From an uncultured archaeon (GTDB taxonomy: Archaea; Altiarchaeota; Altiarchaeia; IMC4; SCGC-AAA252-I15): a stretch of 17,106 nt of DNA. The stretch spans positions 1 through 17,106 of the forward strand of contig CABMCB010000083.1 in NCBI GenBank assembly GCA_902384455.1, given 5' to 3'. The translations under genes and the position numbers were made by a program. Shown in pieces: positions 410-15,878 of this stretch; the first letter of the stretch is position 1; each line of letters starts with the position of its first letter. The notes beneath the pieces are model-generated. The model saw only the letters and a program-made list of their open reading frames with translations, did no database searches and was not told the origin of the DNA.

Positions 410-484
410 TTATTTCACCCATGCCGATACAAAAAATTTGTAGAACATTTATAACGATTCGCGGTAAATAACACTTGACCCAAC

Positions 485-2071
485 ATGAAACGCTCTGTTG
501 CTTTAGCTATAATCGGACTTTTACTATTATCCAGTTTACTATTGACCGTTAAATTTGCCAGCGCTGGGACCCTTATGCATAGTGAGGATTTCGAATCGGG
601 TGCCGCCGCTGATTTCTGGTCGTGGGAAACCGCACCATTCGATACATCAGGCACAATATCGACAACTGCTCAATATGTGCACTCAGGTACCCATGGTGCT
701 TATTTCTCAGGTCCATACACAAATTATCTAAATTGTGAATCAACTCCTAATAGTGCCGAAAAACAAACTTTTACTATTTGGGCTAAATTCTCAGATACCG
801 CTACGGACCCTAACCTTGGCACTTCTATAATTGACGCTTTTTGGGACTCAGATTATACCTATGCCAATCTTGGTACTGACGGGAATAACCACATCAACCT
901 TTCACTTATTGACAGTAATGCTGATTCCCATGGGGAAGCTCTTGTTTCAAGGAACACTTGGCATAACATAACCATGACTGTTTTGCTGACAGAAGGCGCC
1001 TCAATAGTTGATTCTGCTTTATACTTGGATGGCACTCAAGTTGGAACATCCTCTGTAACTTTGGGGAGTCCAACAGCAACAGATTCTTTTTCAATCGAAG
1101 TCAGCGTTTTCGCATACTCAGGGTACGTTGCAATGGATGACATTAAGCACTATTCTGGCTCTACGTTGGTTAACTCTGTAGACTTGGAATGTGGGGGTTG
1201 GGGCGCAGATTGGACGAAGGGGGTTTCGCCAAAAAGTGGCTATGTTGTCTCTGACACCGCAGATTATATCCACTCGGGCGATTATGGTGCATACTTCGCC
1301 CACTATGATGACGGGTCAACTTCCAACAACATGTACTACAAACCCGCTACGCTGTCTCCCACTGTAGAAAACAGTCTTGCAAATGCTCGGGTATTCACTG
1401 TTTGGGCAAAATTCTCAGCTACATCAAGCGACCCGACAGCTTTCAACTCTAATCCCGCGAACTTTTTCGTATTTTGGCTTACCGATGCCATGACAGGTTT
1501 TGCTATATCTTCCCCAAACGCTAACAACCAATTAACTATCGATACCTTTGACACGGCAAGTTCTATACCTCTTCAGCGCGATACATGGCTAAACTGTACT
1601 GCCGCATTCTATTTTACATCAAACACTGACCCTGAGTCAATGGAAGAGCAACCATACATACTCCATGCGCTCTTTTATGTCAACGGTGTTGCTGACGGTG
1701 CCCGTGAAATACCTCGAACTGAAGCTCAAGTATCAACTCCCACTGCTGGGAATGTTTATCTGTACAACTTCAATTGGGCAGACGGGTATGTTGCAGTCGA
1801 TGACTTCAAAGAAACAATTGGCGGCGACAGCGGTTCAACTCCAACACCCACTCCTACAGCTACGCCAACTTCAACTCCACATTCGGGAACTGTGAGCGGC
1901 AGTAGCGGAACCCACAAAAGCACTTCAACACCAACAGTTGCCCCCTCTGAAACCGACGCCGGTATCTTGGGCTTTTTAGCTCTCGTGCCATGGTGGCTCT
2001 GGGCGATAATTGCTGGCTGTATCGTTGTCGCTATACTGATTGTGGTACAAGCGAAAACGGACCACCCATGA
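485..2071 (+). CDS. Cell-surface protein: signal peptide, two tandem LamG/concanavalin A-like beta-sandwich domains, Pro/Thr/Ser linker, C-terminal TM anchor (528 aa)
   Basis: Hydrophobic N-terminus ending ASA. Duplicated motifs YvHSG..GAYF, FT.WAKFS, W.N.T, LY.DG/FYVNG and GYVA.DD.K, which resemble LamG. TPTPTPT linker and hydrophobic C-terminus. TTTATAA at 448-454. Confidence 0.8.
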   Translation: MKRSVALAIIGLLLLSSLLLTVKFASAGTLMHSEDFESGAAADFWSWETAPFDTSGTISTTAQYVHSGTHGAYFSGPYTNYLNCESTPNSAEKQTFTIWAKFSDTATDPNLGTSIIDAFWDSDYTYANLGTDGNNHINLSLIDSNADSHGEALVSRNTWHNITMTVLLTEGASIVDSALYLDGTQVGTSSVTLGSPTATDSFSIEVSVFAYSGYVAMDDIKHYSGSTLVNSVDLECGGWGADWTKGVSPKSGYVVSDTADYIHSGDYGAYFAHYDDGSTSNNMYYKPATLSPTVENSLANARVFTVWAKFSATSSDPTAFNSNPANFFVFWLTDAMTGFAISSPNANNQLTIDTFDTASSIPLQRDTWLNCTAAFYFTSNTDPESMEEQPYILHALFYVNGVADGAREIPRTEAQVSTPTAGNVYLYNFNWADGYVAVDDFKETIGGDSGSTPTPTPTATPTSTPHSGTVSGSSGTHKSTSTPTVAPSETDAGILGFLALVPWWLWAIIAGCIVVAILIVVQAKTDHP

Positions 2072-2078
2072 AAAAAAG

Positions 2079-2441
2079 TTAGGACTCATCAGCTTGAACT
2101 TCAAAGTCCTCTTGGTAGATGTCACGCAATGAGTCCTCAGCTTCCCCAACACTTTTTTCAGCTTTCTCAACTAAGAAGTAGGCGTCTGCCCTGTTGTCTT
2201 CAATGCGCTCTTTTTTGAATTTGCTGAGCTTTTCACTTAGCTCTGCCGCTTCCTCTTGAAGTGCTTTTGCTTCCTCTATGGGCGTCATAGGGCGCTTAAT
2301 TTTTATCGTAACAATGTCTTGAGGTTTCAATTCTAAGCGACGAGTAACTGACTTTTTCATGTTCTCGACGAATTCTTCCTGACTGCACTTTGGGTTGGGG
2401 AAATCTTCTGGTGCTCCCTGTACTATAACTTCAACTGGCAT
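2079..2441 (-). CDS. Hypothetical protein with a coiled-coil-like C-terminal half (120 aa)
   Basis: ATG 5 nt after GGGTG (2447-2451); E/K-rich helical segment. Confidence 0.75.
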   Translation of the reverse strand: MPVEVIVQGAPEDFPNPKCSQEEFVENMKKSVTRRLELKPQDIVTIKIKRPMTPIEEAKALQEEAAELSEKLSKFKKERIEDNRADAYFLVEKAEKSVGEAEDSLRDIYQEDFEVQADES

Positions 2442-2451
2442 TTTTTCACCC

Positions 2452-2480
2452 TAAAAATTTTTTTGATAAGCGCTAAATAG
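2452..2480 (+). promoter_or_regulatory. Conserved promoter (AT tract + GATAAGC + TATA-like box), copy 1
   Basis: TAAAAATTTTTTTGATAAGCGCTAAATAG; the first 20 nt are identical to 14347-14366. Confidence 0.65.
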
Positions 2481-2516
2481 GTAGCATACCCACTTCGCTA
2501 TTAAAGGTTGGTATTC

Positions 2517-3206
2517 ATGAAAAAATCACATGCATATGCTCTAATCGCAGTCGGCGTTATCGCCCTTGTCCTCAGCGCTGTCGTCCTACAATACACCAAC
2601 GTCTTCGCTACTGGCGCACCAAGCACTAAAATCGACGAAAAGAAAGCCACCCAAGATACTCAAGCGGCAGGCGGCATAGGCTACGTCTACGTTGCGGCAA
2701 TTTTGGGCTTTGAAGATGGAAGCACACAAGAAATCAGCACAAACACAACAATGTTCACACCCGTAAAACCGGCGTGGGTAGCATTCGAAAATCACACCCT
2801 TGTTTACATGCAAATTGACTTCAGAGCAACAATGGTTCAAGACATCGGAAGCTGGAACACCAAAGTAACATCACAAATAGAAGCATACAAAAGCTCATCA
2901 ATCCCTAAAACAAGCGCGTCTGCTGACTTCAAAATGAACGGTGCCTCATGGGGCGCTGGCGTAACAAAAACAATCTCTTCAACCACCCTGTCTCAAAGCC
3001 AAATCAACGAAGCTCTGACAAAGTGGGGCGACGGAGAATGGGTCTTCCAAATCAACAGCAAAGTAGCCCTAACATGCACTTTAAGCAACGGCGCTCAAGA
3101 CTACGTAGCAATTAACCCCTCGGCAGATATTAGCCTTACATTCGCAGGTCAAGAACCGACAAATGGCATGGCAACGATGAACGTCAACATCATGGCTGGA
3201 CAGTAA
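2517..3206 (+). CDS. Secreted or N-terminally anchored hypothetical protein (229 aa)
   Basis: MKK followed by a hydrophobic stretch; T/S-rich beta-like body. ATG 2517 preferred over TTG 2508 because AGGTTGG lies upstream. Conserved promoter at 2452-2480. Confidence 0.8.
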   Translation: MKKSHAYALIAVGVIALVLSAVVLQYTNVFATGAPSTKIDEKKATQDTQAAGGIGYVYVAAILGFEDGSTQEISTNTTMFTPVKPAWVAFENHTLVYMQIDFRATMVQDIGSWNTKVTSQIEAYKSSSIPKTSASADFKMNGASWGAGVTKTISSTTLSQSQINEALTKWGDGEWVFQINSKVALTCTLSNGAQDYVAINPSADISLTFAGQEPTNGMATMNVNIMAGQ

Positions 3207-3243
3207 ACTGTCCCTTCCACTCTTTTTTCACCCATAGAAAAAT

Positions 3244-3260
3244 GTAGCAGTTGCTACTTT
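3244..3260. repeat. Palindrome GTAGCAGTTGCTAC(TTT), identical copy at 9628-9644
   Basis: 17-nt exact repeat overlapping the TAG stops of two unrelated genes; variants at 7894-7907 and 11616-11629. Confidence 0.75.
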
Positions 3261-5362
3261 TCGGTTTTATCTGGGAGCTTCAGTTGGTCGTCTGAAAGCA
3301 TTATTCCCGTATGTCCCCAATGAATCGTAGTAACGTATGTGTTTGGCTTGTGGGTCTCGGCGTCAGGTGGTGTCAGCTTCTTTAGGCATCGGTTGCATAT
3401 TGGAATCGCCACCGATAATTCTGGGGTGTCGTCGTCCCAATATTCATATGCTTCCTCTTTTTTCTCGTCAAAGTTGTAGTTAGTATGCATTGAGTGCCGT
3501 CTAAAGAATGGGTCTCTGATTTTATCCATAGGGTCAACGTCTTGTAGTCGACTGTTGCCGATGTATGCATCGTTCTGTTGGTGTAGGTGCTCTACGATGT
3601 CGCGTTGTAGCTCTTCTGGTTTTACGCCGAAAAAGGCGCAGATTTGCCGGTAGTCTTGGAATTTCAACTCGACAATAACGTGCCATCTATACTTTTTACA
3701 GCATGGGCATGGCGTTTTGTATCTGTCCTCTGCGTACCTTGAGAGATGATACTTGCCGAGTTCGTTCCAAATTACAGAGGTCGTGTTCTTGAGACCATAT
3801 TTTGCATCTGTCATTGTGGGAATTGTATCGTGCCCCCATCGGTAGTATGAAGCTGGGCTTACTCCCCGCCGCATTCTTCCTTCGCGGTCCCTTTCTAAGG
3901 GGCGTATGTCTGTGTAGAGCTTTAGTATCGGCACCTGAATCAATGTAGGTTCTTTGACGTCTTGGGTTCCAAACTCAGTGTAGCGCTCAGTAAAAGCGGG
4001 GTACCCCATAAATGGGTAGAGCCTATTGCCTAGCGCTTTCTTAACTACTTCTACGACGTCATGGCTTTTTATGAAGGTTTCAAACCATTTGAAGGCTTGT
4101 TCAGCACTTGCTTTGTAGTCAATGTGAAGCTGTTTTTTCACTTCGATAGCGACTTTTTCTCTTTTCTGGTACTCGATGACTGCGGTCACGTATTCTTTTG
4201 TGCCGATTACTCCTAAGAGGCAATTGCGGTCAATGGGTGTGATGCTTGTAATTTTCGAGGCGTATTTGTTGACTAAGTAACTGCTCGCGTCTGCGTGGCT
4301 TTCTGATTTTGGTCTGGTGAAGTCGATTTTGCCTGTTTTGTCTTCCAGCATTTTTAGAGCTTCGTTAGGCGTGATGCCCTGCTCTATTTTGTTTTCTTGG
4401 CAGTTGATGTAGTGTAAGACTCTGAAAACGAAAAGACTGAGCCATGCTCCGTTTTCTGGCTCTTTTTCGAACATCGCTTTGAGGGACCCACGAATTAAGA
4501 CTTTGCGCTTTTTGATGGTGATTGCTGTGCAGGTTGACGGCTTGGCTTCCGTTAGCAGTTGGTCATAGGGTAGCCACATGTTGCCGAATCGTCGCTCAAG
4601 GTAATCGTCGGGTTTTCGGTCGCCAGATGGATTGTTGATGTCTAAACGTCTCTCTGAGTTTTCTACGACGTAAAGCGTTTGTTTCCATATGATAAAGAAG
4701 TACACGTTAGGCTTGTAGTAGTATATCTTGTGTCGCATGAATGTCATTATCAGGTAGTTACCTTTTTGTTGCTGGGTCTTCTCGAAGAACTTGTTTTCGA
4801 AATACCAGATTAGGTCTTCTGGGTCTTCGATTTCCAGTAAATCGTCAAACAAGATGAGGTCTTCGCTTTCTGTTGGTGCAATCTTTAGGTCGGCAATTTT
4901 GAGTACTTGGAATTGACATCGGTCGGTGCCGATTGATACTTTGGCACAGTCATAAACGGCTTGTAGAACCCGGTCATTAAGAATTGGCGTCAGCCACTGT
5001 TTGAGTGTTGCATAGGATTTTGTGCTGTTCATGACGATAGCGAGAAACTTGTTTCTGTCTTCCTCGCTGAATTCTTGAAGGTCTGTGATTAGGAAGTCAA
5101 TTTTGGTAGTGTAGTTCTGGTAGAGGTTGATTGCTTTTATGAGCCATTCCCAAGGTGTGCCCTGCGCCCGTTCAATAAGCTCTTTGATGTCGTCGTGAAG
5201 CCAACAATCGTTTCCTGAGCCTTGAAAGTAGTTTTTGTCTTTGAATTTTTGGTATAATTCAACGCCGCGTTTGTTGTTTAGCTGGCGATAAATGAGTAAA
5301 TCGTTAATTGCGTCCAGAATTGCTTGCGGGGGATTCATGTAACTTCTGAAGTCGAATGTCAA
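3254..5362 (-). CDS. Large hypothetical protein (702 aa) with possible Zn-binding CPCC...CNRC pairs near the C-terminus
   Basis: Long ORF; TTG 6 nt after GGGTG (5369-5373). I recognise no family. Confidence 0.85.
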   Translation of the reverse strand: MTFDFRSYMNPPQAILDAINDLLIYRQLNNKRGVELYQKFKDKNYFQGSGNDCWLHDDIKELIERAQGTPWEWLIKAINLYQNYTTKIDFLITDLQEFSEEDRNKFLAIVMNSTKSYATLKQWLTPILNDRVLQAVYDCAKVSIGTDRCQFQVLKIADLKIAPTESEDLILFDDLLEIEDPEDLIWYFENKFFEKTQQQKGNYLIMTFMRHKIYYYKPNVYFFIIWKQTLYVVENSERRLDINNPSGDRKPDDYLERRFGNMWLPYDQLLTEAKPSTCTAITIKKRKVLIRGSLKAMFEKEPENGAWLSLFVFRVLHYINCQENKIEQGITPNEALKMLEDKTGKIDFTRPKSESHADASSYLVNKYASKITSITPIDRNCLLGVIGTKEYVTAVIEYQKREKVAIEVKKQLHIDYKASAEQAFKWFETFIKSHDVVEVVKKALGNRLYPFMGYPAFTERYTEFGTQDVKEPTLIQVPILKLYTDIRPLERDREGRMRRGVSPASYYRWGHDTIPTMTDAKYGLKNTTSVIWNELGKYHLSRYAEDRYKTPCPCCKKYRWHVIVELKFQDYRQICAFFGVKPEELQRDIVEHLHQQNDAYIGNSRLQDVDPMDKIRDPFFRRHSMHTNYNFDEKKEEAYEYWDDDTPELSVAIPICNRCLKKLTPPDAETHKPNTYVTTIHWGHTGIMLSDDQLKLPDKTEK

Positions 5363-5385
5363 TTAAAACACCCAAGGAAAAAAGA

Positions 5386-5613
5386 TTAGGGATTTGTTGG
5401 AAGATTAACTTTGTCATCTTTGAAGTGTATCGTTAAGAACAAGAGTTTGCGCTGTTTTTCCTTTAGCTGAGCTATGGTTCCGTCGATTTCTTGATTGTTC
5501 TTTTGTAGTTTTTTGATGGTCTCAGCGTTTTCTTTTCGTAAGTCTTGAAGCTGTTTAATCGATGCGCCTATCTCTCGGTATTCATCATGTGGGTTCTTTG
5601 TGGGGGTGCTCAT
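5386..5613 (-). CDS. Small coiled-coil hypothetical protein (75 aa)
   Basis: Heptad-like pattern. Start overlaps the end of the upstream gene and uses GTGG rather than TGGGTG. Confidence 0.7.
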   Translation of the reverse strand: MSTPTKNPHDEYREIGASIKQLQDLRKENAETIKKLQKNNQEIDGTIAQLKEKQRKLLFLTIHFKDDKVNLPTNP

Positions 5614-6031
5614 TTAACCACTTTATGTATCGTTCATAGGCAAAGTCGCCGAAGGTGCCGTCACTGTTGAAGTCATAACCCTTATTTCCGTAAAAACCGG
5701 GATTCGCTGTTTCTTTTTGCAATGGTTCAACAACTTGCGCCATGAATTGGTCCCACGTATAGCGCCTGTCGTAGCTGTCGTAGATTGTTGCCGTACCGAT
5801 TACTTTCTTCCATTCTTCAATGGTTCTTGCTTCCAACTGTTGCCATTTGCCGTCGACTTTGATGTTGACGTATGGTCGCCACTCGAAGAGAAACCTGAAT
5901 TTTGTGCCGTTTTCTGATGTTTCCTTTATGGTTCTGCCTAGTAGAATCGCATCAAATCGTTCGCAACTTCCGCACTTGTTCGCTTCAAAGTAGAATTTTA
6001 CTTCAAAAAGACCGCTTGGAGCGTAGTCCAA
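5585..6031 (-). CDS. Hypothetical protein (148 aa; MDYAPSGLFEVK...) with CGSC motif
   Basis: Start moved from 6115 to TTG 6031, 6 nt after GGGTG (6038-6042), because 6051-6176 holds a separate gene. Confidence 0.7.
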   Translation of the reverse strand: MDYAPSGLFEVKFYFEANKCGSCERFDAILLGRTIKETSENGTKFRFLFEWRPYVNIKVDGKWQQLEARTIEEWKKVIGTATIYDSYDRRYTWDQFMAQVVEPLQKETANPGFYGNKGYDFNSDGTFGDFAYERYIKWLNEHPHKEPT

Positions 6032-6050
6032 TAAATTCACCCAAAAATAG

Positions 6051-6176
6051 TTATGGCGCTGGCAGTCCTCTTTTCTTCCAGCATTTTGAACAAAGTATTT
6101 CTCCCGTTCCCCCATGACGAGTGTTTTTAGGGACGGGATTATGGCACACGTCGCAAAATTCTATGTCACTACTCAT
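6051..6176 (-). CDS. 41-aa zinc-finger microprotein MSSDIEFCDVCHNPVPKNTRHGGTGEILCSKCWKKRGLPAP (not in the ORF track)
   Basis: Translated by hand. CxxC-x17-CxxC. ATG 8 nt after GGGTG (6185-6189); stop 7 nt before the next junction motif (6038-6043). Confidence 0.75.
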   Translation of the reverse strand: MSSDIEFCDVCHNPVPKNTRHGGTGEILCSKCWKKRGLPAP

Positions 6177-6207
6177 CTTAAATGCACCCAAATAGAAAAA
6201 GGAAAAT

Positions 6208-6849
6208 TTAGGGGTTAGCGGAGTTCGCCAACGTGGTTGATGTTACTGGCACGATTTCTGTCTCCGCAGGTGCTTCAGGCACGGGTTGCGGCTCAGTGGC
6301 GGCAACTGCCGGTACTGGCTCTTCAGTTTGTGGTTCCGCTGGGACTTCGACAGGTGTTTCCGCGGGCGCTTCAATTATCGGTATTTGCTCTTGGACTGGC
6401 TCGGGCTGAGACGCTGGCTCAGGCGGCGCTTCTATAACTGGCGCTGGGGGTGCTTCGATTGGTTGTGTTGGTGCCGGTGTTTGTTGGTCCGCGAAGGCTA
6501 CGGCAATTTCTTCCGTGAATTTCTTGATTACCTGCGCAACTCGAATGCATTTTTTCGTGATTATGATGTCGTCACCGCTTCCCCGTTTACGGTGATACTT
6601 GATTGCCAAGCCCATATCTATGGCTTCGGTTTTTCGGCGTTGTAGTGTAATGCTCGATATGGTTCCGCCATGGCTTTTAATCCATGCGAAAATGTCTTTG
6701 TTGCCGATTATGACCTGAACTTCTGGGTCAATGGGTTGTGGTAACAAAGCTTTTCGTGCGGCGTCAAGCTCAGCGATGGCGATGATGAAGTCGAAAGTAT
6801 GGCTACTGCCGTCCTTACCTGTGCTTTGTAGGTATTCTAAGATGTCCAT
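6208..6849 (-). CDS. Hypothetical protein with a Pro/Glu/Ala-rich low-complexity C-terminal tail (213 aa)
   Basis: ATG 7 nt after GGGTG; repeated IEAP / EP.P elements. Confidence 0.8.
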   Translation of the reverse strand: MDILEYLQSTGKDGSSHTFDFIIAIAELDAARKALLPQPIDPEVQVIIGNKDIFAWIKSHGGTISSITLQRRKTEAIDMGLAIKYHRKRGSGDDIIITKKCIRVAQVIKKFTEEIAVAFADQQTPAPTQPIEAPPAPVIEAPPEPASQPEPVQEQIPIIEAPAETPVEVPAEPQTEEPVPAVAATEPQPVPEAPAETEIVPVTSTTLANSANP

Positions 6850-6871
6850 TTGAGTTCACCCACGATTCATA

Positions 6872-6898
6872 CAAATTTTTTGAATAAGCGCTAAATAG
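6872..6898 (+). promoter_or_regulatory. Conserved promoter, copy 2
   Basis: CAAATTTTTTGAATAAGCGCTAAATAG; shares ATAAGCGCTAAATAG with copy 1. Confidence 0.65.
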
Positions 6899-6920
6899 TC
6901 TCTTCTACTATTTGAAACCT

Positions 6921-7190
6921 ATGCCCTCAGAAATTTCTAAAGCTGTTCAAGATGGCGAAGGACTCCGTGAAGCATTCACAAGCTGTGTCGAAGAAAACGG
7001 TCGACCAATTTGCGAAGCCCAGCTATTGACTGCCCTGATAGTTTCTGAAGCCGCCGCCCAAGAAAATTATGACGTCTCCGCCGAATTGATGCCTAACCAC
7101 GCACGTAAATTCACTGAAATAAAGGGCGAAGAAAAAGTGCACTGGCGCGAACTTGGTGCCATTTCAAAGACCCTCCTTATGAACAGGTGA
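6921..7190 (+). CDS. Hypothetical protein (89 aa), probably leaderless, first gene of a two-gene unit
   Basis: ATG about 25-30 nt after the conserved promoter at 6872-6898. Confidence 0.7.
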   Translation: MPSEISKAVQDGEGLREAFTSCVEENGRPICEAQLLTALIVSEAAAQENYDVSAELMPNHARKFTEIKGEEKVHWRELGAISKTLLMNR

Positions 7191-7196
7191 TAGTTT

Positions 7197-7877
7197 TTGC
7201 GAAAACAAGCTCTCACCGCTCAAGTAGTAAAACGCCAATTTGGTCCCCAACTCAAAGCAATAGTTGAGGCAACAAACAAAGACAACCTTGAGCGCGGCAT
7301 ACGTTTCTGCCGAACCATGGATGGCAAACTGTTTTTAGGCGGACGCGACGACCTCCGCGGTCACTTATTCCCCGGAGAACCAGACATTGGCACTTCCACC
7401 GAAACATCTTTCGGCGGCTGTCCAAACGACAGCGAAAACGGTCATGTTGGCGTAGGAAGCTTCCATACTCACCCAGCACCCGGTACTAACGGACCAAGCC
7501 CAGCGGACATAAACACCTATGGCAGTAACGCGCAACATCGCAAGTATCCCAGCATTTTCCATTATGACGACACGCCCTATGGCAAAAGCGAGCTTGATTG
7601 CATCGCTGACAGCAAAGGTGAAATGATTTGCATAACTGGCGTTGACAGGGGAAAAGCCGCTGGATACGACATTATTTTTGCTCTTGGCGGCGACAAAGAA
7701 ATGGCTGAATGTCTGAAAGAACTCAAGCGAAAGCATCCCGGCGAGAACATAAGTCCGTATGATACTGAAGGTGCTGACATCGGCATAGTTGCGGAAGCTG
7801 AATCGAAGTGCGCTGACCCCTTCTTTAGGCGATATGCGGATAGTAACGATATAACGTTCTCTACTGTGACTCTGTAG
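7197..7877 (+). CDS. JAB/MPN (JAMM)-like metalloenzyme domain protein (226 aa)
   Basis: E(RG)...GSFHTHPAPGTNGPSPAD fits E-xn-HxH-x7/8-SxxD. TTG start preceded by AGGTGA, which overlaps the upstream stop. Confidence 0.7.
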   Translation: MRKQALTAQVVKRQFGPQLKAIVEATNKDNLERGIRFCRTMDGKLFLGGRDDLRGHLFPGEPDIGTSTETSFGGCPNDSENGHVGVGSFHTHPAPGTNGPSPADINTYGSNAQHRKYPSIFHYDDTPYGKSELDCIADSKGEMICITGVDRGKAAGYDIIFALGGDKEMAECLKELKRKHPGENISPYDTEGADIGIVAEAESKCADPFFRRYADSNDITFSTVTL

Positions 7878-7903
7878 GCACCCAATAAAAAAAGTAGCGG
7901 ATG

Positions 7904-8158
7904 TTACTCTTTTTTAATTGTTTCGATGTAATAGACAAGCAAACCGTGGAAAACAACTGCATACATCATGAAGTTGCCCTTTCGTAGGTCCTTGAAAACG
8001 GGGACTTCGCCGGTAAGTCTTTTGTTGATGAAGTCGATGAATTCGTCTTCTGTGATTATTTCTATTGCGCTTGATTTTATGTGGATGGTTGCGCCGAGTA
8101 TGGTTACATTTTTTGCTTCATCTTTCAGGGTTTTCTCAAATTCTTCTATGTTGTCCAT
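7904..8158 (-). CDS. Hypothetical protein (84 aa)
   Basis: ATG 6 nt after GGGTG (8165-8169). Confidence 0.75.
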   Translation of the reverse strand: MDNIEEFEKTLKDEAKNVTILGATIHIKSSAIEIITEDEFIDFINKRLTGEVPVFKDLRKGNFMMYAVVFHGLLVYYIETIKKE

Positions 8159-8188
8159 TTAATGCACCCAAAGAAAAAAAGAAGAGAC

Positions 8189-8704
8189 TTATTTGGCTAT
8201 GATTGGCTGTTCAGGATTTTTCTGCTTTTTAGGACCGCGTGGACAATAATCGTTGCATACGCCCTTAAAACAGACGCATTCATAAAACGATTTGTCATGG
8301 CTGAAACCGTCTTCACGATGGATTTTGTGCTTCTTTCTACAGTATCTTTTCTGCTCTGCTTTGGTTTTGCCTTTCGGATTGCCCTTCACTAGATACCGGC
8401 AAATGTATTCTTCAAAGCCTTCCGTTCGAGCTTTGACAACCATTGCGATTGCTTCCTTCTCGGGAATGCCCAGAAGCTGTGAAGCTAACGCAATGTGATT
8501 ACAAAACATGCCGGCTTTGCATGCTGGACAGCTTACTAAGTGCTCTTTGTCGAGCATTAGTGTTTCAAAGTATGCTTTGAGTTTGGCGACCCACGTCTCA
8601 ATCTCTGCTCGGGAATATTCTACTGTGTCGTTTTTGCCTGACTCGCTACAGTGAATCATACCATGTGGAAAATTTGCGATTGTTGATTCTGGCATTGGTT
8701 CCAT
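8189..8704 (-). CDS. Cys/His-rich hypothetical protein (171 aa), possible SWIM-like Zn finger (CPAC-x5-CNH) plus a C-terminal Cys cluster
   Basis: ATG 6 nt after GGGTG; Cys pattern seen in the translation. Confidence 0.75.
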   Translation of the reverse strand: MEPMPESTIANFPHGMIHCSESGKNDTVEYSRAEIETWVAKLKAYFETLMLDKEHLVSCPACKAGMFCNHIALASQLLGIPEKEAIAMVVKARTEGFEEYICRYLVKGNPKGKTKAEQKRYCRKKHKIHREDGFSHDKSFYECVCFKGVCNDYCPRGPKKQKNPEQPIIAK

Positions 8705-8730
8705 TTATCTCACCCAAAAAAGGGCATCGC

Positions 8731-8907
8731 TTAATAGTTGCTTTTTTTCCGTTTGTACGTTTCACAGTGGAATGAATCGTTATCTTCGCCCCACGAGAAG
8801 TCAACTTCGGATGCTGAACAGTTGTTTACTGGCAACCCAGCGATGCTGATTGGTGGCTTTGGCATGTGATATTCACATGTTTCTGCTGGACAATTAATAC
8901 ATGGCAC
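8731..8907 (-). CDS. Small Cys-rich protein (58 aa; MPCINCPAETCEYH...)
   Basis: GTG 6 nt after GGGTG (8914-8918); CxxC-x4-CxxH. Confidence 0.65.
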   Translation of the reverse strand: MPCINCPAETCEYHMPKPPISIAGLPVNNCSASEVDFSWGEDNDSFHCETYKRKKSNY

Positions 8908-8931
8908 GTTTGTCACCCAAAAGAGAAAAAA

Positions 8932-9204
8932 TTAGGGTTTAACTGGCGCTACTTTTCTGACGCCCCAATTAGAGATTTCCGAGTGCTTTGCCGCGAAGCT
9001 TAACTGGATGTGGCTTTCACAAAACTTTGGTAGCTTTTTCGATTCAATGTCAATGCTGGGGTCTTCTCGCAGGTCATCTAAATCGCTTTCAATCATGGTT
9101 TCGGCGTCGTAAGTGTCGAAATCCGCATCATTGCTGTCGACAATGTCATGTCCTTGTTTCTGCCTGCCGTCCGCTCGAATCCACCAATAAACTGTAAATT
9201 TCAA
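8932..9204 (-). CDS. Acidic hypothetical protein (90 aa; MKFTVYWW...)
   Basis: Start moved to TTG 9204, 6 nt after GGGTG (9211-9215), which removes the overlap with the upstream gene. Confidence 0.7.
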   Translation of the reverse strand: MKFTVYWWIRADGRQKQGHDIVDSNDADFDTYDAETMIESDLDDLREDPSIDIESKKLPKFCESHIQLSFAAKHSEISNWGVRKVAPVKP

Positions 9205-9227
9205 TGTTAGCACCCAAAAAAGAGGGG

Positions 9228-9545
9228 TTAGGCTCTCTCGATGATTGCCCAAGCGGTCATGCGTTGCATTTTTCTGAATCCTTCTTTTAGTCCGATACAG
9301 CCCATGTCTTTGTATTCCCAGATGTCGCTCTGGATTACTTCACCTTTAACGTCATAGAGGGTAACTTTGAGCTTTAGTTTGTTTGTTATGCCTCGATAGT
9401 TGTTGATTCCGACACGATACTGGACTGCGAGCATTGGGACCTGCTCTGTTTTGTCGCCGATTTTCAGCGGCTGGGTTACTGCAATGTGACCGTCCAGCGT
9501 TTTTTCGTCGCCAACACAAGTTCTGAAATGTAGCCTAAAATCCAA
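9228..9545 (-). CDS. Hypothetical protein (105 aa)
   Basis: TTG 6 nt after GGGTG (9552-9556); alternative GTG at 9554. Confidence 0.7.
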   Translation of the reverse strand: MDFRLHFRTCVGDEKTLDGHIAVTQPLKIGDKTEQVPMLAVQYRVGINNYRGITNKLKLKVTLYDVKGEVIQSDIWEYKDMGCIGLKEGFRKMQRMTAWAIIERA

Positions 9546-9624
9546 GATTTTCACCCATTTCCGGCTCTAGCACTTTTTAGTCATTTAGGGTGGGTTTTTT
9601 GTGCTAAAAAGCCTCAAGACAAAA

Positions 9625-9644
9625 AAAGTAGCAGTTGCTACTTT
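9625..9644. repeat. Inverted repeat AAAGTAGCA-GT-TGCTACTTT
   Basis: 9-bp perfect arms overlapping the stop of 9638..9883. Confidence 0.75.
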
Positions 9645-9883
9645 ATGAAGACTATTATGTTTCTCTTTTGCAGACGCTTCAGCGCGTCTTTGACCTCGTC
9701 GCTTTTTTGGAATTCTTTGTTGATTTCATCGACAGTGACATCGTGGAACATGCAGTGTTTCTTGACGAATGTGATGATGTCTCGCTGAAGCTTTCCGCAT
9801 CGCCAAGTTGTGTTCGCTTTTAGGCGAACTATGGTTTTGTCGCTCTTCAGGTGTCTTACCTCTGTCTTAACGAATAATTCCAT
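9638..9883 (-). CDS. Small basic hypothetical protein (81 aa), possibly winged-helix-like C-terminus
   Basis: ATG 5 nt after GGGTG (9889-9893). The EVKDALKRLQKRNII helix suggests wHTH only weakly. Confidence 0.7.
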   Translation of the reverse strand: MELFVKTEVRHLKSDKTIVRLKANTTWRCGKLQRDIITFVKKHCMFHDVTVDEINKEFQKSDEVKDALKRLQKRNIIVFIK

Positions 9884-9917
9884 CTAATCACCCATATGTA
9901 CTTTTTAGACGTTTTGC

Positions 9918-11099
9918 TTACAAAGAAAAGGGGGGAAGCGTAAGCTTCGGTAGTAGCTCAGGGTGGACCCAAACGATTTGTGGTGGGTTCCAGTTGATTT
10001 TGGTGTAGCGCTCTTTGCAGGTTTCTTTAAGCCATGCTTCGGTTTTGGTTAGGTTTTCTTCCCAATTCTCTTTATTGAATAGCCGTTTTTCTGCGAGACT
10101 GCCGTGTAGTCCTGTTTCTTCAATGCTTGTACTCCACCAATCGCCAAACATTGTGTTGCCAGTTTCAGTGATGACCATAAGCTCAACTCTGCATAAGCGG
10201 TTGTAGATGACTCCGTCGACTTTGATTTTTTCCCATGCTGGACGGTTGTCTGGCGCTTTGAAGTCAGTGGCTAAGACGTTCTTTTCAACGTCTGAAGAGT
10301 AGTAGTATTTGTTGTAGATTCGCACTGTGGCGTCGCTCTTGTAGGATTTGATTGTGAAGACTATGGGTGCTTCTTTGTCTGCGACTTCTCGGATTGTTGA
10401 GATTGCTTCGAAGTCTGTGAGCTTGTATTTGCTGATTGTCTCTTCGTACTCTTCTTTGGTTGCCCGGTATTGCTGTAGAAAGCCTGAGTAAATGTGTGCT
10501 CGGTGTTTCTCTGCGTACCGCTTTAGCTCTTCAATTGTTGGTGCGTCCAAGATTTTCTGCTCAACGTTGGGGTTAACTCCGCCAGTGTTGACGTTTACGC
10601 CGCTATAGTATGTCTGTAGGTCCATAAGTGGTGTGAAGGCACAGCGCCCGTAGACCATAAGTGAGTACTTGTTTTTGGGTTTGTCATTTTCTGCGATGCA
10701 AAGGACTAAGTGCAGGTATTTGTCCCTGAAAAGGTCGGGTAGCCAGATGATTTGATGGTTGTTGTAGCCTGAGAACTTGGTTGTATCGACATTGATTGTG
10801 GCTGTTTTCTCTTCGATTTCCTTCTGGGCGTTAAGGATTTTTAGCTTGAAATCAACATCTTTGAAGGTTGCGCCGATGCTATCGATTTCAGCGTCCAGCT
10901 TGCTTTTTTCTTGTTCTGCCTCATCGTGGATGACTTTGATTCTTGCATCTTTTTCCTTCTTTAAATTGGCAATTATCTCGTCGTAGCCGTCAGTGATTTT
11001 CTGTTCTTTTGCACTGGCAATAGCCGCTTTTACCGATTTCTCGCCGGTTACCTCCAAAAGTTTGTCCCTGTTAGCTAAGTATTCTTCGACTTCTTTCAA
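9918..11099 (-). CDS. Hypothetical protein (393 aa) with an N-terminal coiled coil
   Basis: Long ORF; TTG 8 nt after GGGTG (11108-11112). Alternative ATG at 11114 overlaps the motif. Confidence 0.85.
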   Translation of the reverse strand: MKEVEEYLANRDKLLEVTGEKSVKAAIASAKEQKITDGYDEIIANLKKEKDARIKVIHDEAEQEKSKLDAEIDSIGATFKDVDFKLKILNAQKEIEEKTATINVDTTKFSGYNNHQIIWLPDLFRDKYLHLVLCIAENDKPKNKYSLMVYGRCAFTPLMDLQTYYSGVNVNTGGVNPNVEQKILDAPTIEELKRYAEKHRAHIYSGFLQQYRATKEEYEETISKYKLTDFEAISTIREVADKEAPIVFTIKSYKSDATVRIYNKYYYSSDVEKNVLATDFKAPDNRPAWEKIKVDGVIYNRLCRVELMVITETGNTMFGDWWSTSIEETGLHGSLAEKRLFNKENWEENLTKTEAWLKETCKERYTKINWNPPQIVWVHPELLPKLTLPPFSL

Positions 11100-11154
11100 A
11101 CTATTTTCACCCATACCGCAACGCTTTAATTTTCAGCGCTCGCAATAACATGAC

Positions 11155-11613
11155 ATGCAACTCCCACGCTACCATCCAATCGTTCCCTTTGTTCTCTTCG
11201 GCGGCATTGTTCTGCTATTCACAAGCCTTGATTTCCTAGTTAACAGCACGCTTTACCACTTTGGCTTAGTCTTCGACAATGCGTGGTTCGGACCCTACTC
11301 GTGGATTTACTTGTTCATGTATCAGTTTGCTATACTTCTGCTTTGGCTACCCAACCGGGATATGCGCTTCATGATTTTTGGTCAAGCGTTCTTTTGGAGC
11401 GCCACCCAAGACCTCGTCTACTTCATGCTCTGGCAAGGTTACATGCCAGCCGCTAATCAAGATTGGTGGTGGTCAAACTACCGTTTGGTTTTCGGCTCTT
11501 GGACAACACCCTTGCAAATAACAATTTCGACCATTGGGTGCACACTAGCCGTTACTGCCATACTTCTCATGACTGTGCGGGGCTATCGTCCACCAAAATG
11601 CGCTTGCGGATAA
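11155..11613 (+). CDS. Integral membrane protein (152 aa, about 4 TM segments)
   Basis: Several hydrophobic, aromatic-rich segments; TTTAATTT at 11125-11132. Confidence 0.8.
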   Translation: MQLPRYHPIVPFVLFGGIVLLFTSLDFLVNSTLYHFGLVFDNAWFGPYSWIYLFMYQFAILLLWLPNRDMRFMIFGQAFFWSATQDLVYFMLWQGYMPAANQDWWWSNYRLVFGSWTTPLQITISTIGCTLAVTAILLMTVRGYRPPKCACG

Positions 11614-11646
11614 AAGTAGCGTTTGCTACACCCATGAAAAAAGGGG

Positions 11647-11871
11647 TTACATTTCGTCTAACCCGTTTGAGCACTCGGAGCAAATGCTTGGGTTAAACGA
11701 CGTGATTTTGTAGCGTTTTCTGCATATGGTACAGATGCCTTGGCATACGCCTTTATGCTTGCATGTTTCGCAGTTATCAAAATTGTTTTTTCTTTTATGT
11801 TCATCAAAACAATTGCTGATTTGCGCGGGCGTTTTGCCATGGCGTGGTCCTATATAATGGTCAATTGTCAT
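11647..11871 (-). CDS. Small multi-Cys (Zn-binding-like) protein (74 aa)
   Basis: ATG 8 nt after GGGTG (11880-11884); CETC, CQGIC, CTIC and CSEC motifs. Confidence 0.7.
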   Translation of the reverse strand: MTIDHYIGPRHGKTPAQISNCFDEHKRKNNFDNCETCKHKGVCQGICTICRKRYKITSFNPSICSECSNGLDEM

Positions 11872-11904
11872 AAAGTGGGCACCCAATAAAAAAAGAAGAG
11901 AAGA

Positions 11905-12633
11905 TTAAACGGTAACAAACTCAAACTTTTTATCTTCCTTTTTAACGAGCAAAGACATTTTCGACAACGGTTCCTCTTGGTATTTCTCGATGCTGACCAT
12001 GAAACGATGCGTTATTGGAGGGTCTAAGACAAGCTCTAAACGGTACAGGTCTGGACCCCGCGTTGACTTTTCGACCGCGAATACGCCGGTTACTTTTGTG
12101 TTGACTTCGCCAACTACTGGATACGGCTCGGAAGTGGTAACTCCTTGTACGTCTTGCATGACTGCGTAAATGAGTGGTGGCAGGTTTAGCTCTTTGAGCT
12201 TTTTTATGGTCTCGGGTAAGGTTAATCCTTTCCATTCTGCCTCAAGTTGTCGTCGGTATTCGATTGTGACTTCATGTCTGATTTCTTCTATGATGTCGCA
12301 GATTCTGCGTTCGCCGATGAGGTAGTCTTTTGCGTTTTGGGACGCTTCAAGTACCGCTTTCTTTTCGTCCCAGAGTCCGTCGTAGTCTGACTTAAGCTCT
12401 TTTGAGAGCCGTTTCCAGACTGCATCAATTTTTATCATGTCTTCCACGGGTTGGTCAAAGAACTCTTGAAGTTTGTCGCTTTTGTACTCCATCAATCGCT
12501 GGCAGTAGTTTCTCTCTTTGAGGCTGTCTTTTAGCTCAGCGTCAGCGTTCCATTCGGTTTTTTCTTCTTTCATCCAATCGGACGTCAGAATTGCCGAAAG
12601 TATGTCTTTATCGCTTGGTTGCATTGAATGCAT
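11905..12633 (-). CDS. Hypothetical protein (242 aa)
   Basis: ATG 5 nt after GGGTG (12639-12643). Confidence 0.8.
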   Translation of the reverse strand: MHSMQPSDKDILSAILTSDWMKEEKTEWNADAELKDSLKERNYCQRLMEYKSDKLQEFFDQPVEDMIKIDAVWKRLSKELKSDYDGLWDEKKAVLEASQNAKDYLIGERRICDIIEEIRHEVTIEYRRQLEAEWKGLTLPETIKKLKELNLPPLIYAVMQDVQGVTTSEPYPVVGEVNTKVTGVFAVEKSTRGPDLYRLELVLDPPITHRFMVSIEKYQEEPLSKMSLLVKKEDKKFEFVTV

Positions 12634-12691
12634 TGATTCACCCATCACAAGTTTTAAATCTACAGAGCGGTCACAAGCTTATTGACCACAT

Positions 12692-12898
12692 ATGGCTGAA
12701 GTAATAACTGCATCAACTGCTCAAATCGTTGTCGGCACTACTATCGCCGTCACAAGTGCTTTGGTTCTTGAAGAGATACGCGAACAAAGAAAAAATGGGC
12801 GAAGCCCACTCAAGCTTGCCGGTTCTCTTCTATGGCGAGGTATCTGTGCGCTGGGTAGAGGATTCGCCGCTTTAATCCGCTATTGTCTTAAGCGGTAG
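12692..12898 (+). CDS. Small membrane-associated protein (68 aa)
   Basis: Hydrophobic N-terminus and amphipathic C-terminus; TTTTAAAT at 12652-12659. 3' end overlaps the convergent gene by 11 nt. Confidence 0.6.
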   Translation: MAEVITASTAQIVVGTTIAVTSALVLEEIREQRKNGRSPLKLAGSLLWRGICALGRGFAALIRYCLKR

Positions 12899-13253
12899 CT
12901 GAGAGTCCCTTTTTGCTCATAAATTCTGCATGGGCTTCATTTCCTTTCTTAAAAATCTCGTTCGGCTCTTTTTCTGCACATGAAGCACACATTGGTTTTA
13001 GAAGGTACTTATCGATTAATGCTTTCATCCATGGGCGAAAATAGATTGTAAGCCCACATTTTTGGCATTCCATTTTAACGCTGTCTCCGTAGTAGTCGAT
13101 AAGTGGTCCAGCGGCAACGCTGTTAACTGCGGCTTTGGCGCCATATTTTGCCACAACTTCTGAAAGCCGTTGCTCTGTCAGCGTTTTATTGTAGATGTCC
13201 CGCAGATTGCCAAGTGCTTGGCGGATATTCAGCTTCGGATTAAGAGTTGTCAT
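12888..13253 (-). CDS. Zn-ribbon-containing hypothetical protein (121 aa)
   Basis: CQKC...CASC; ATG 5 nt after GGGTG (13259-13263). Confidence 0.75.
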   Translation of the reverse strand: MTTLNPKLNIRQALGNLRDIYNKTLTEQRLSEVVAKYGAKAAVNSVAAGPLIDYYGDSVKMECQKCGLTIYFRPWMKALIDKYLLKPMCASCAEKEPNEIFKKGNEAHAEFMSKKGLSATA

Positions 13254-13274
13254 GCTGTCACCCAAAAAAAGAGG

Positions 13275-13670
13275 TTAGGAGTGTTTTCGGTTTTCGTCTC
13301 CTATGGCTGTGATGAATTTCGGGACTTGATTCATTGACCGTAACAATTCTTCGCTTATCTGGGCTTGAGGGTATCGCGGCTTGATTACTTTGAGGTATGT
13401 CTGCTCTATGCTCAGCTTGCCGTCGCCATCGTACCAGAACAATAATGTAGCAATTGCTACACTGCGAGATACGCCTGCTTGGCATTGGAGAATTACTCGC
13501 TCGGTCGAAAGTAGATTGTCGACACCTATCGTTTTCGCAAGGAGTTTTCCCGGGTGATTCTTCCCGTCAACAAGCTCCCGGCAGTCAACAATGATTGAGC
13601 CGTACTCTTCTGGTTTCAATTCATCGCTCGGTGTTTTAATCCCTATTTTGCTCGTTAACCAAATTACCAT
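13275..13670 (-). CDS. Dual-specificity/protein-tyrosine phosphatase family protein (131 aa)
   Basis: P-loop VILQCQAGVSRS (CX5R), upstream acid loop LVDG, downstream helix ending in RYP; ATG 7 nt after GGGTG. Confidence 0.85.
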   Translation of the reverse strand: MVIWLTSKIGIKTPSDELKPEEYGSIIVDCRELVDGKNHPGKLLAKTIGVDNLLSTERVILQCQAGVSRSVAIATLLFWYDGDGKLSIEQTYLKVIKPRYPQAQISEELLRSMNQVPKFITAIGDENRKHS

Positions 13671-13684
13671 TCGGTAGCACCCAT

Positions 13685-13712
13685 ACAAAATCTTTGAATA
13701 AGCCTTAAATTG
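13685..13712 (+). promoter_or_regulatory. Conserved promoter, copy 3
   Basis: ACAAAATCTTTGAATAAGCCTTAAATTG upstream of 13745. Confidence 0.6.
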
Positions 13713-13744
13713 ATTGCCCCTCGCCTAAAGAATTAGGCGAAAAA

Positions 13745-13948
13745 ATGGGAAGCCATGACGAAAACGCAAAAGCATTAAGAGCAATAGGGTCCAAAGTCTT
13801 CAAAGCGGCTAACGTCAAGGACTGCAAATCTCAAGGCTCAACCGTCATATGCGACGTTGACTTCAAAGTCCCTGATTCTGACGTTACAAAGCACACTGTT
13901 TGTACGTTGCCTGACGACACATTCCGCTTTGACTGCAAAGAAAAGTAA
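13745..13948 (+). CDS. Small hypothetical protein (67 aa, 4 Cys)
   Basis: Conserved promoter at 13685-13712; AGGCGA SD; T-tract after the stop. Confidence 0.7.
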   Translation: MGSHDENAKALRAIGSKVFKAANVKDCKSQGSTVICDVDFKVPDSDVTKHTVCTLPDDTFRFDCKEK

Positions 13949-13958
13949 GGACCTCTAC

Positions 13959-13969
13959 TTTTCTTTTTT
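13959..13969 (+). terminator. Oligo-T archaeal-type terminator after 13745..13948
   Basis: TTTTCTTTTTT directly before AGGG-CACCCA. A similar TCTTTTTT at 3221-3228 follows 2517..3206. Confidence 0.5.
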
Positions 13970-13991
13970 AGGGCACCCAAAAGAGAAAAAA

Positions 13992-14180
13992 TTAGGGAAG
14001 AGCAAGCCACTGCCTCACTTCGCCTTTTACTCTTAGCTCTTCGATAGCCGCTTGGAACGTCGCTTTCTCTTCAGGCATAACACTGAAGTCCCGTAGCATT
14101 TCCTCAACTTCAACAATATCGGGGCTTTCTTCGTCAAGCTTGTCTCGAATTAGTTTTTTAAAATCTTCTTTACTTCGCAT
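13992..14180 (-). CDS. Small hypothetical protein (62 aa; MRSKEDFKK...)
   Basis: Start moved to ATG 14180, 5 nt after GGGTG (14186-14190). Confidence 0.7.
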   Translation of the reverse strand: MRSKEDFKKLIRDKLDEESPDIVEVEEMLRDFSVMPEEKATFQAAIEELRVKGEVRQWLALP

Positions 14181-14233
14181 AAATGCACCCAAAAGGTGGT
14201 GGGACGTGCCAGCCGATGACTCCGCCAGATAGC

Positions 14234-14317
14234 TTATTTCTGACGGTGGTGCTTTAATGTCATCGGCGCGAAACGTTCCCTTTTCGCTAGGGCTTTGGCA
14301 CGTTGCAGTCTTTGCAT
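14234..14317 (-). CDS. Possible 27-aa basic peptide MQRLQRAKALAKRERFAPMTLKHHRQK
   Basis: Translated by hand; ATG 9 nt after GGGTG (14327-14331). The unit could instead be non-coding. Confidence 0.35.
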   Translation of the reverse strand: MQRLQRAKALAKRERFAPMTLKHHRQK

Positions 14318-14346
14318 TTCGGTGTACACCCATATAAAGCATCGCT

Positions 14347-14375
14347 TAAAAATTTTTTTGATAAGCTTTAAAATG
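14347..14375 (+). promoter_or_regulatory. Conserved promoter, copy 4
   Basis: TAAAAATTTTTTTGATAAGCTTTAAAATG upstream of 14410. Confidence 0.65.
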
Positions 14376-15604: not shown

Positions 15605-15820
15605 TTAGGAACCGTCAAGGTCAGTTGGGCAGATAAACCCTTGATGCTGAATTATCTCGTCTTTAAACGCCTCAAGCACAGGTTTTCTCATTAGCCGAGG
15701 GTTCTTTTTGGTATAAAGCTCGCCGCAGACAAACATCGAAACTTCACCCGTTTTCAAATCTTCATCAAAAGAGATGTTGGTGCCCTCAGTGTTCATGTTA
15801 ACCTTTGTCATCTTTCCCAT
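15605..15820 (-). CDS. Hypothetical protein (about 71 aa)
   Basis: Fills the gap between two + genes. Start uncertain (ATG 15820 or 15811). No TGGGTG upstream. Confidence 0.55.
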   Translation of the reverse strand: MGKMTKVNMNTEGTNISFDEDLKTGEVSMFVCGELYTKKNPRLMRKPVLEAFKDEIIQHQGFICPTDLDGS

Positions 15821-15878
15821 CCCTTCTAAATTCCTTTGACAAGCGATATATACTTTATCAAACAATTTAGTGCTCACA

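Follow-up and report, generated by a model that had tools for sequence, protein, structure and literature searches.

The window analysed here is the whole of contig C83 (17,106 bp), one of 103 contigs in a 2.41-Mb genome bin of an uncultured archaeon. It carries an array of genes on both strands in which the hexamer CACCCA, that is TGGGTG when read along the minus strand, recurs at gene borders: there are 38 copies in the window, 33 of them on the plus strand, with 6.7 expected from shuffles. A sequence-only reading of this DNA had claimed that, between 2063 and 13979, the motif is present at five of the six junctions where a plus gene and a minus gene meet stop to stop, that one gene takes its stop codon from it, and that it marks a boundary and is not only a translation signal. 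All of its junction coordinates hold.

C83 stands apart from the large contigs of the bin, with a GC content of 45% against about 50% and a CACCCA/TGGGTG density of 2.2 per kb against about 0.5 per kb, which is the chance level. Eight further small contigs of 44-46% GC (C87, C73, C91, C15, C37, C75, C45 and C31) match C83 in density and architecture, and some of these sister contigs overlap one another with 84-95% identity, which is what one would expect of pieces from strain variants. We read this set as an archaeal virus or plasmid whose genes are mostly orphans, and refer to it as the element; its link to the host is given solely by the binning.

At the first junction (J1, 2063..2081, minus strand), the minus gene 2079-2441 ends in TAA (2079-2081), followed by T7, CA, and TGGGTG (2068-2063), with no start codon within 3-11 nt. 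The plus gene 485-2071 (528 aa) reads through from the other side and ends CAC-CCA-TGA, with CACCCA at 2063-2068. This ending is as had been claimed; the stop codon itself is not taken from the motif, as TGA adjoins the hexamer and lies outside it; its complement is the TCA that separates T-run and TGGGTG. A second opposite-strand gene ending CAC-CCA-TGA is present in contig C37.

The other four junction copies are built similarly on the minus strand. At J2 (3229..3259), the stop of gene 3254-5362 lies inside a GTAGC-N4-GCTAC hairpin (3244-3257), followed by T5 and TGGGTG (3234-3229), the motif starting 22 nt after the plus-gene stop at 3206. At J3 (7879..7907), gene 7904-8158 has its stop within an imperfect hairpin (7894-7907), after which come T7 and TGGGTG (7884-7879), and the TAG of the plus gene for a 226-aa protein (7875-7877) is one base ahead of CACCCA at 7879. 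J4 (11616..11649) consists of the stop of gene 11647-11871, C4T6, TGGGTG (11634-11629), and a GTAGC-N4-GCTAC hairpin (11616-11629), with the motif starting 15 nt after the plus stop at 11613; it is the left edge of a 251-nt strain indel. J6 (13974..13994) consists of the stop of gene 13992-14180, T6CTCTTT, and TGGGTG (13979-13974), 25 nt after the plus stop at 13948, and is the right edge of a 296-nt strain indel. The remaining junction, which lies between J4 and J6, is the exception, as had been noted: the genes 12692-12898 (plus) and 12888-13253 (minus) overlap by 11 nt (12888..12898), with neither T-run nor motif. A possible seventh stop-to-stop junction at 15603/15605, outside the range considered earlier, has no copy either, and its candidate minus-strand open reading frame (ORF), 15605-15877, lacks a TGGGTG signal.

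The six junction windows sum to only 225 nt, and when the 33 plus-strand copies were placed at random 200,000 times, five or more junctions were never hit. We also counted nine copies inside plus genes, in agreement with the earlier count, and this in-gene rate (9 copies in 6,423 nt) is indeed too low to produce five junction hits (P = 3.9e-7). The in-gene copies start at 1845, 2648, 7470, 11403, 14873, 15084, 15389, 16060, and 16601 on the plus strand. On the sense strand of plus genes, nine copies compare with 3.4 expected from synonymous-codon shuffles, of which 3 in 1000 reach nine, and two in-gene copies fall in identical Pro-Thr linker stretches.

A recurrent unit at the ends of minus-strand genes

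We found that the junction copies are part of a unit that recurs along the minus strand in a fixed order: a stop codon, mostly TAA, a run of pyrimidines rich in T, and TGGGTG, sometimes with a GTAGC-N4-GCTAC hairpin before the run. Fifteen copies in the window lie 7-19 nt past a minus-gene stop, each preceded by a T-run inside a pyrimidine-only stretch, and the T-run is of at least four letters in all fifteen. A position matrix of 87 units from ten contigs gives about ten pyrimidines, mostly T, an invariant TGGGTG, then A or C. The core of the unit is about 16 nt long, or about 35 nt with the hairpin.

Ten of the fifteen units are tandem, the next gene start following the motif. An example is 5369..5388 (minus), with TAA, a T-rich run, TGGGTG, and a 6-nt spacer before the TTG start of gene 3254-5362; in the nine others, CACCCA starts at 138, 6038, 6185, 8165, 8711, 8914, 9211, 11880, and 13259. 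The remaining five are convergent and are exactly the five junction copies. The gap between stop and motif is alike in the two classes (7-19 nt in tandem and 10-19 nt in convergent units), and letters are shared across them: junction copy 13974 has 24 identical letters with the tandem unit 8914, 7879 has 18 with 11880, and a stretch of 34 nt in the J2 unit has 97% identity with a tandem unit of contig C75. The 14-nt hairpin is present in three of five junction units and in only some tandem ones; the window holds five GTAGC-N4-GCTAC hairpins where 0.26 would be expected, three of them at J2, J3, and J4. Tandem units have no TATA-like element, only 7-19 nt separating stop and TGGGTG, and promoter-like sequences are confined to divergent regions.

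Since junction and tandem units are alike, the junction copies correspond to the normal end of a minus gene with nothing behind it. They form no separate signal, and a molecular function beyond translation is not shown by these data, so that the boundary claim does not stand as proof of a non-translational function, the junction copies being ordinary gene-end units.

U-tracts are described as a signal of archaeal termination that is read together with aCPSF1 (PMC8716108), and for this reason the T-run of the unit is probably an archaeal U-tract terminator or attenuator. One may then ask if the junction copies act at the RNA level in their own right, at the 3' end of the final minus gene. They might, for example, take part with the U-tract in termination or in cleavage of the aCPSF1 type, or offer a ribosome or protein a landing site that stabilises the 3' end, and the use as a ribosome-binding site elsewhere would then be a second use of one element. 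We consider this unlikely. It would account well for five exact hexamers with a T-run directly before them and 10-19 nt from the stop, and for the pattern of divergence around J1, where, among the best-supported strain differences listed, six fall at 2035-2053 and the next at 2115, none touching motif or T-run; the binding of aCPSF1 to U-tracts reported for archaeal termination also fits (PMC8716108). However, transcripts ending in the T-run would leave the hexamer beyond the RNA 3' end, and the five junctions fold no better than shuffled sequences (z from +0.33 to -1.72). Moreover, a hairpin with T7 and no TGGGTG follows gene 9638-9883 (9625..9644, minus), and therefore such a unit can exist without the hexamer. 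Finally, contig C73 (2386-2500, 3172-3262, 3663-3700) has two solo units in tandem context, in which 59-80 nt of non-coding DNA separate the unit from a second TGGGTG serving a gene, and a unit with the variant TGGGAG; spare copies are therefore not peculiar to convergent junctions.

A further candidate was a DNA motif with strand polarity, of the Chi or FtsK orienting polar sequence (KOPS) type; we rejected it, as the gene-end copies are always accompanied by a T-run and lie at a fixed distance from starts. Outside the element, a loose hairpin, T-run, and TGGGTG pattern gave more than 120 matches in viral contigs, where the loci fetched had at most one unit-like site each, as by chance; a stricter form gave none in the viral contigs and two chance matches in Bacteroidota genomes. 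The hairpins open with GTAG and close with CTAC, which recalls the GTAG-headed palindrome of repetitive extragenic palindromes and their associated transposases (REP/RAYT elements). This likeness is a lead only, and Pfam scans of the window and sister proteins gave no Y1 transposase family.

A 70-nt intergenic element at 9574-9643, between two minus genes, combines a T-run, an A-run, and a GTAGC hairpin and is 90% identical to positions 1706-1774 of contig C24; its letters suggest a terminator acting in both directions with a new promoter behind it.

TGGGTG before minus-strand start codons

For seventeen of the 33 plus-strand copies, a modelled minus gene starts 5-8 nt downstream, while copy 138 precedes a minus gene truncated by the contig end, and copy 14327 lies 9 nt before a 27-aa ORF. 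Several signal copies are not preceded by a stop codon and polypyrimidine run: one at 416..421 (minus), which has a conserved promoter-like stretch before it, and others starting at 6857, 9552, 9889, 11108, 12639, 13678, 14186, and 14327. To these may be added the variant CACCCT at 2447-2452, and gene 2079-2441 (minus) uses the variant AGGGTG. Ten related contigs rich in the motif contain 131 TGGGTG copies, and 97 of these are followed, after 3-11 nt, by a start codon that opens an ORF of at least 30 aa. Upstream of ORF starts, the pentamer GGGTG shows a 15-fold enrichment in the element and one of 1.3-fold in host contigs, whose top pentamers at this position are the canonical AGGTG and GGAGG, enriched only about 1.5-fold.

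The 3' end of 16S rRNA reads GGATCACCTCCA in all ten family relatives read, and GGGUGA can form five Watson-Crick pairs and one G-U pair with the UCACCU of this tail; CACCCA was found nowhere else in the 16S genes of the nine relatives scanned. Given its narrow spacing to starts, its enrichment before ORFs, and the pairing it could form with the 16S tail of family relatives, TGGGTG behaves as a Shine-Dalgarno site, and we infer that it is primarily a translation signal of this type. GGGTG-containing forms are also among the ribosome-binding sites listed for Thermococcales plasmids (PMC2926602).

Plus genes do not use the motif: they start either close behind TATA-like boxes with no signal, or behind AGGTGA (7197) or GGAG (14680). 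The two classes also differ in their stop codons (TAA 4, TAG 4, and TGA 2 in plus genes; TAA in 16 of 19 minus genes) and in third-position composition.

If TGGGTG is a ribosome-binding site, the five junction copies might themselves serve unannotated antisense micro-ORFs or non-canonical starts, which the earlier reading had named as a result that would speak against a boundary. We searched behind all five and found no convincing ORF, and we regard such ORFs as very improbable. At J2, a GTG at 8-nt spacing opens a 23-aa ORF (3149-3220, minus), and at J1 a TTG is seen by eye at 12-nt spacing, with about 24 codons counted by hand; however, at J3, J4, and J6 the 3-11 nt range contains neither ATG nor GTG nor TTG, and by a rough codon-frequency estimate about one site in eight would by chance carry a start with an ORF open for at least 20 codons, with which one in five is compatible. 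In addition, in a related population that lacks the adjacent plus cassette (see below), the copy at 13974 would serve a full-length gene.

The motif has a practical value for annotation, as it fixes start codons and uncovers small genes. It reveals an unlisted 41-aa gene of the four-cysteine zinc-ribbon type at 6051-6176 (minus), with its start at 6176 and a weak match to DUF7685, and in 5585-6031 (minus) it favours a TTG start at 6031 over an ATG at 6115. In the 116-aa ORF 13992-14342 (minus), an internal TGGGTG (14186) lies 5 nt before an in-frame ATG at 14180, and this locus may be a 62-aa gene preceded by the 27-aa ORF 14234-14317 rather than one gene.

Strain differences at motif copies

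The window was compared with a population about 90% similar, present as contigs in one public DNA run. Nineteen of the 21 pieces of this relative are less than 95% alike to the window, and together they give some depth in 30 of 30 depth bins. Ten joints are listed, and in four of them both ends lie at motif copies or at most 8 nt away, two of them exactly. By hand arithmetic, the copies with 8 nt on each side make up about 4% of the window, and four doubly bounded joints are therefore far beyond chance. The relative's contigs were presumably assembled with 31-letter words, in which case repeats of 6-25 letters should give no false joins.

In joint (a), the contig of the relative continues from 11628 to 11880 without break, with six shared letters, CACCCA. 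The 251 nt absent (11629..11879, minus) form a complete cassette of spacer, 74-aa zinc-ribbon-like gene (11647-11871), T-run, and TGGGTG. Read in this way, the joint shows that a copy which would work in the window as the ribosome-binding site of gene 11647-11871 (11880) is a spare terminal copy in the relative. Joint (b) leads from 13676 to 13973 over seven shared letters, GCACCCA, and skips 296 nt (13677..13972, plus), made up of a promoter region, the gene 13745-13948 (67 aa), and the T-run of this gene. Such joining would leave an ordinary tandem junction, in which 7 nt of spacer precede gene 13275-13670. This joint shows the reverse for 13974, which would be spare in the window and would serve a gene in the relative. 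Joints (c), from 8171 to 8724, and (d), from 8922 to 9207, each remove or replace one minus-strand gene: 8189-8704 in the segment 8172..8723, whose ends lie 1 and 8 nt from copies 8165 and 8711, and 8932-9204 in the segment 8923..9206, whose ends lie 3 and 4 nt from copies 8914 and 9211. Joints (b), (c), and (d) are flagged 'between: not known'.

Loose ends of the relative's contigs point the same way. One begins exactly at 8165, where another of its contigs becomes unlike the window, a different gene start lying a few bases from the motif, and one lies at 13991, the stop-codon edge of the J6 unit. Within the bin, the 95% similarity of contigs C31 and C91 sets in only at the T-run of a unit.

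The sequence-only reading had proposed to see if similarity to other genomes ends at the junction copies. It does so at two of the five, 11629 and 13974, which are exact strain breakpoints, while homology runs on over the other three (2063, 3229, and 7879). The latter is expected, since the relative is syntenic and about 90% similar, and does not remove the two exact breakpoints. The claim of a boundary is thus right at the level of genome evolution as we read these joints, the motif marking where cassettes are gained or lost.

The reading that we hold to be probable is that the minus-gene cassettes each end in a T-run and TGGGTG, that a junction copy is the spare of the last cassette, and that the unit acts as a breakpoint of mosaicism. 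A minus-strand cassette would comprise a short spacer, a gene, its stop, a pyrimidine/T run of about 10 nt, sometimes with a hairpin, and TGGGTG, which would serve as the ribosome-binding site of whichever gene follows; because every cassette would end with the motif, the last included, a spare copy would be left before an oppositely oriented gene. Plus genes would be self-contained, moron-like insertions, leaderless or with AGGTGA/GGAG and with their own TATA-like promoters and T-runs, each sitting between two motif copies. Cassettes of both orientations would be gained, lost, and swapped via recombination inside the short shared unit. The paralogue in contig C24 of the plus gene 2517-3206 is in a contig without the array and has no CACCCA after its stop; the motif therefore belongs to the array and not to the plus gene.

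Several points weigh against this reading. The relative is colinear across J1, J2, and J3, and six of the ten listed joints lie off motif copies, being diverged stretches in plus genes and, in one case, a promoter region. The comparison covers one relative population in one public run, as contigs rather than reads, and the joints flagged 'between: not known' may therefore be replacements and not clean deletions. Functionless spares would be expected to decay somewhat, yet all five are exact hexamers. As for translation, the invariant T and the first G of TGGGTG depart from the full complement of the 16S tail, GAGGTGA, and this tail is that of family relatives, the host's own 16S being absent from the bin. 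Lastly, identity between two units is usually of 6-10 letters, with a maximum of 25, and ordinary homologous recombination is doubtful with so few shared letters. The mechanism may instead be microhomology-mediated, or involve relaxed recombination by a protein of the element, a site-specific enzyme, or a filter by selection.

A site-specific enzyme would imply that the unit is the crossover site of a dedicated, integron-like integration of cassettes by an element-encoded recombinase, circular cassettes with one copy inserting after a resident copy. Although we think this improbable, it would explain why all inserts, in either orientation and coding or not, are flanked by direct copies: each plus gene of the array lies between two of them, the left retaining the T-run and the right retaining the spacer and start. 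It would also explain that the two exact joints share 6-7 letters, too few for ordinary homologous recombination, and that all five junctions carry a duplicate copy although an insertion upstream of the hexamer needs none, and the excess of GTAGC-N4-GCTAC hairpins would suit it. However, no integrase, transposase, or other recombinase family was found among the 30 window proteins (Pfam and PHROGs) or 50 sister proteins from 11 contigs (Pfam), the hairpin is present at some units only, no circular form was seen, and the same pattern could arise from random events if selection then kept those with an intact ribosome-binding site. As most of the proteins scanned are orphans, they may include a novel recombinase. 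In its boldest form, for which we see only a slim chance, the unit would be the attachment site of an undescribed archaeal cassette-capture system, in which an orphan recombinase integrates cassettes of either orientation, each with a copy of its own, directly 3' of a TGGGTG already in place; if true, each array end would keep an open, expression-ready docking site.

In the relative, two stretches of the window are replaced by unalignable sequence of the same length: 409-606, covering the promoter region and 5' end of the 528-aa gene, and 859-1228 (370 nt), internal to it. Judged from this, the 528-aa protein looks like a fast-evolving surface protein.

The element and known modular systems

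The bin is archaeal, as its 117-kb contig carries a signal recognition particle RNA of archaeal type (153.6 bits, over the family cut-off). Its sole 16S gene, on contig C6 (locus L001, about 150-2424), scores 1242 bits with the bacterial model against 853 bits, has a tail that reads CCTCCTTTCT, and carries, close to its 3' end, an interruption of about 900 nt, in which positions 790-877 match a group II intron domain. An intron within a 16S gene is unusual, and C6 is probably a contaminant contig.

Among the 30 window proteins, the sole Pfam match above cut-off is a nucleotidyltransferase domain in a 379-aa protein, and PHROGs gave two weak matches of unknown function; a Pfam scan of the sister contigs (50 proteins, 11 contigs) added, among others, a PCNA-like clamp, an AAA ATPase, a NADAR protein, and a GNAT protein. 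Searches of the window found no Rfam family and no tRNA. A 702-aa protein has four homologues in a large protein database, at 38-43% identity, and no match in the viral contig set, the genome contig set, or 20 other genomes of the family. One fetched locus of a homologue (L124, 56% GC) has 4 and 6 hexamer copies in 12 kb, none before starts, and is therefore unusable as a test of motif conservation. Comparison of the whole window at DNA level with 48 other genomes of the order gave nothing useful, and PDB sequence searches with three proteins and an Atlas search with the 702-aa protein gave nothing usable. No host-derived copies of window proteins were found, only one paralogue, in low-GC contigs.

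By eye, most plus-strand products of the array look like membrane or surface proteins. The 226-aa protein (7197-7877, plus) has by eye an H-x-H ... S-x-x-D pattern, which we take to be that of JAMM/MPN+ metalloproteases; it has no Pfam family at E<=0.01 and a single homologue in the large database, at 63% identity.

Every divergent region (2455-2480, 6875-6898, 13695-13712, and 14345-14368) contains a conserved, partly palindromic promoter-like block with TATA-like boxes both ways, and in the block at 2452-2508, 57 nt are 86% identical to contig C33. Several operons have a conserved AAAGATTTTGTA-like leader right before the TGGGTG of the first minus gene. A sigma-70 promoter scan scored below the shuffle mean; this model does not apply to archaea.

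The closest described analogue of the unit would be the promoter early stem-loop (PeSL) cassettes of T4-type phages. PeSL are described as motifs that combine a promoter with a stem-loop and flank orphan genes, and close relatives are said to differ by indels that end at them (PMC2839356, PMC4122927). By these accounts, both systems have a short regulatory motif of composite build that recurs where small genes, mostly orphans, meet, and that includes a stem-loop or T-run resembling a terminator; in both, close relatives differ by motif-bounded indels or replacements. They differ in that PeSL carry a promoter, whereas the archaeal unit described here carries a putative ribosome-binding site instead and is shorter (about 16 or 35 nt). 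Unlike in the PeSL accounts, opposite-strand cassettes bearing promoters are inserted at the unit, and its fixed hexamer departs from the host-type signal. PeSL recombination is also reported to release mini-circles.

Short conserved boundary sequences, or 'linkers', have been proposed for modular exchange in phages, and are said to be usually not findable at mosaic junctions (PMC3029335). Recombination at such short gene-border sequences would, as here, give mosaic junctions with intact genes; unlike the linkers as so described, the boundary sequence here is visible at nearly every gene end of one class. The Shine-Dalgarno sites listed for archaeal plasmids and viruses are likewise G-rich and a few bases upstream of the start, and are complementary to the 16S tail, as the present motif may be (PMC2926602). 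Compared with those listed, the element has one fixed, almost invariant heptamer, TGGGTG(A/C), two positions off the complement of the family 16S tail and restricted to one gene class, while the plus genes of the contig are leaderless or use AGGTGA/GGAG. Our literature search on GGGTG Shine-Dalgarno sites in archaea returned generic lists of ribosome-binding sites only, in which no TGGGTG unit is described.

In tailed phages, a moron is a gene with its own promoter and terminator that lies between genes adjacent in a relative. The cassette 13677-13972 fits this description, and differs in its archaeal type of promoter, its opposite orientation, and its flanking direct motif copies. In an integron, small cassettes form an array, each of them closed by an element that is both recombination site and boundary, and the terminal site can take the next cassette; the attC site is an imperfect palindrome of about 57-141 nt with paired inverted cores. 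Unlike in integrons, no IntI-type integrase was found, the core of about 16 nt is not an attC, and cassettes may carry promoters and lie in either orientation.

Boundary sequences that are usually invisible are thus visible here at nearly every gene end of one class, with two strain differences exactly on them. The same contig would combine two modes of translation initiation, one from a fixed TGGGTG that is off the host-type 16S complement and the other leaderless or host-like, and the mode of initiation may be a useful marker of resident versus acquired genes.

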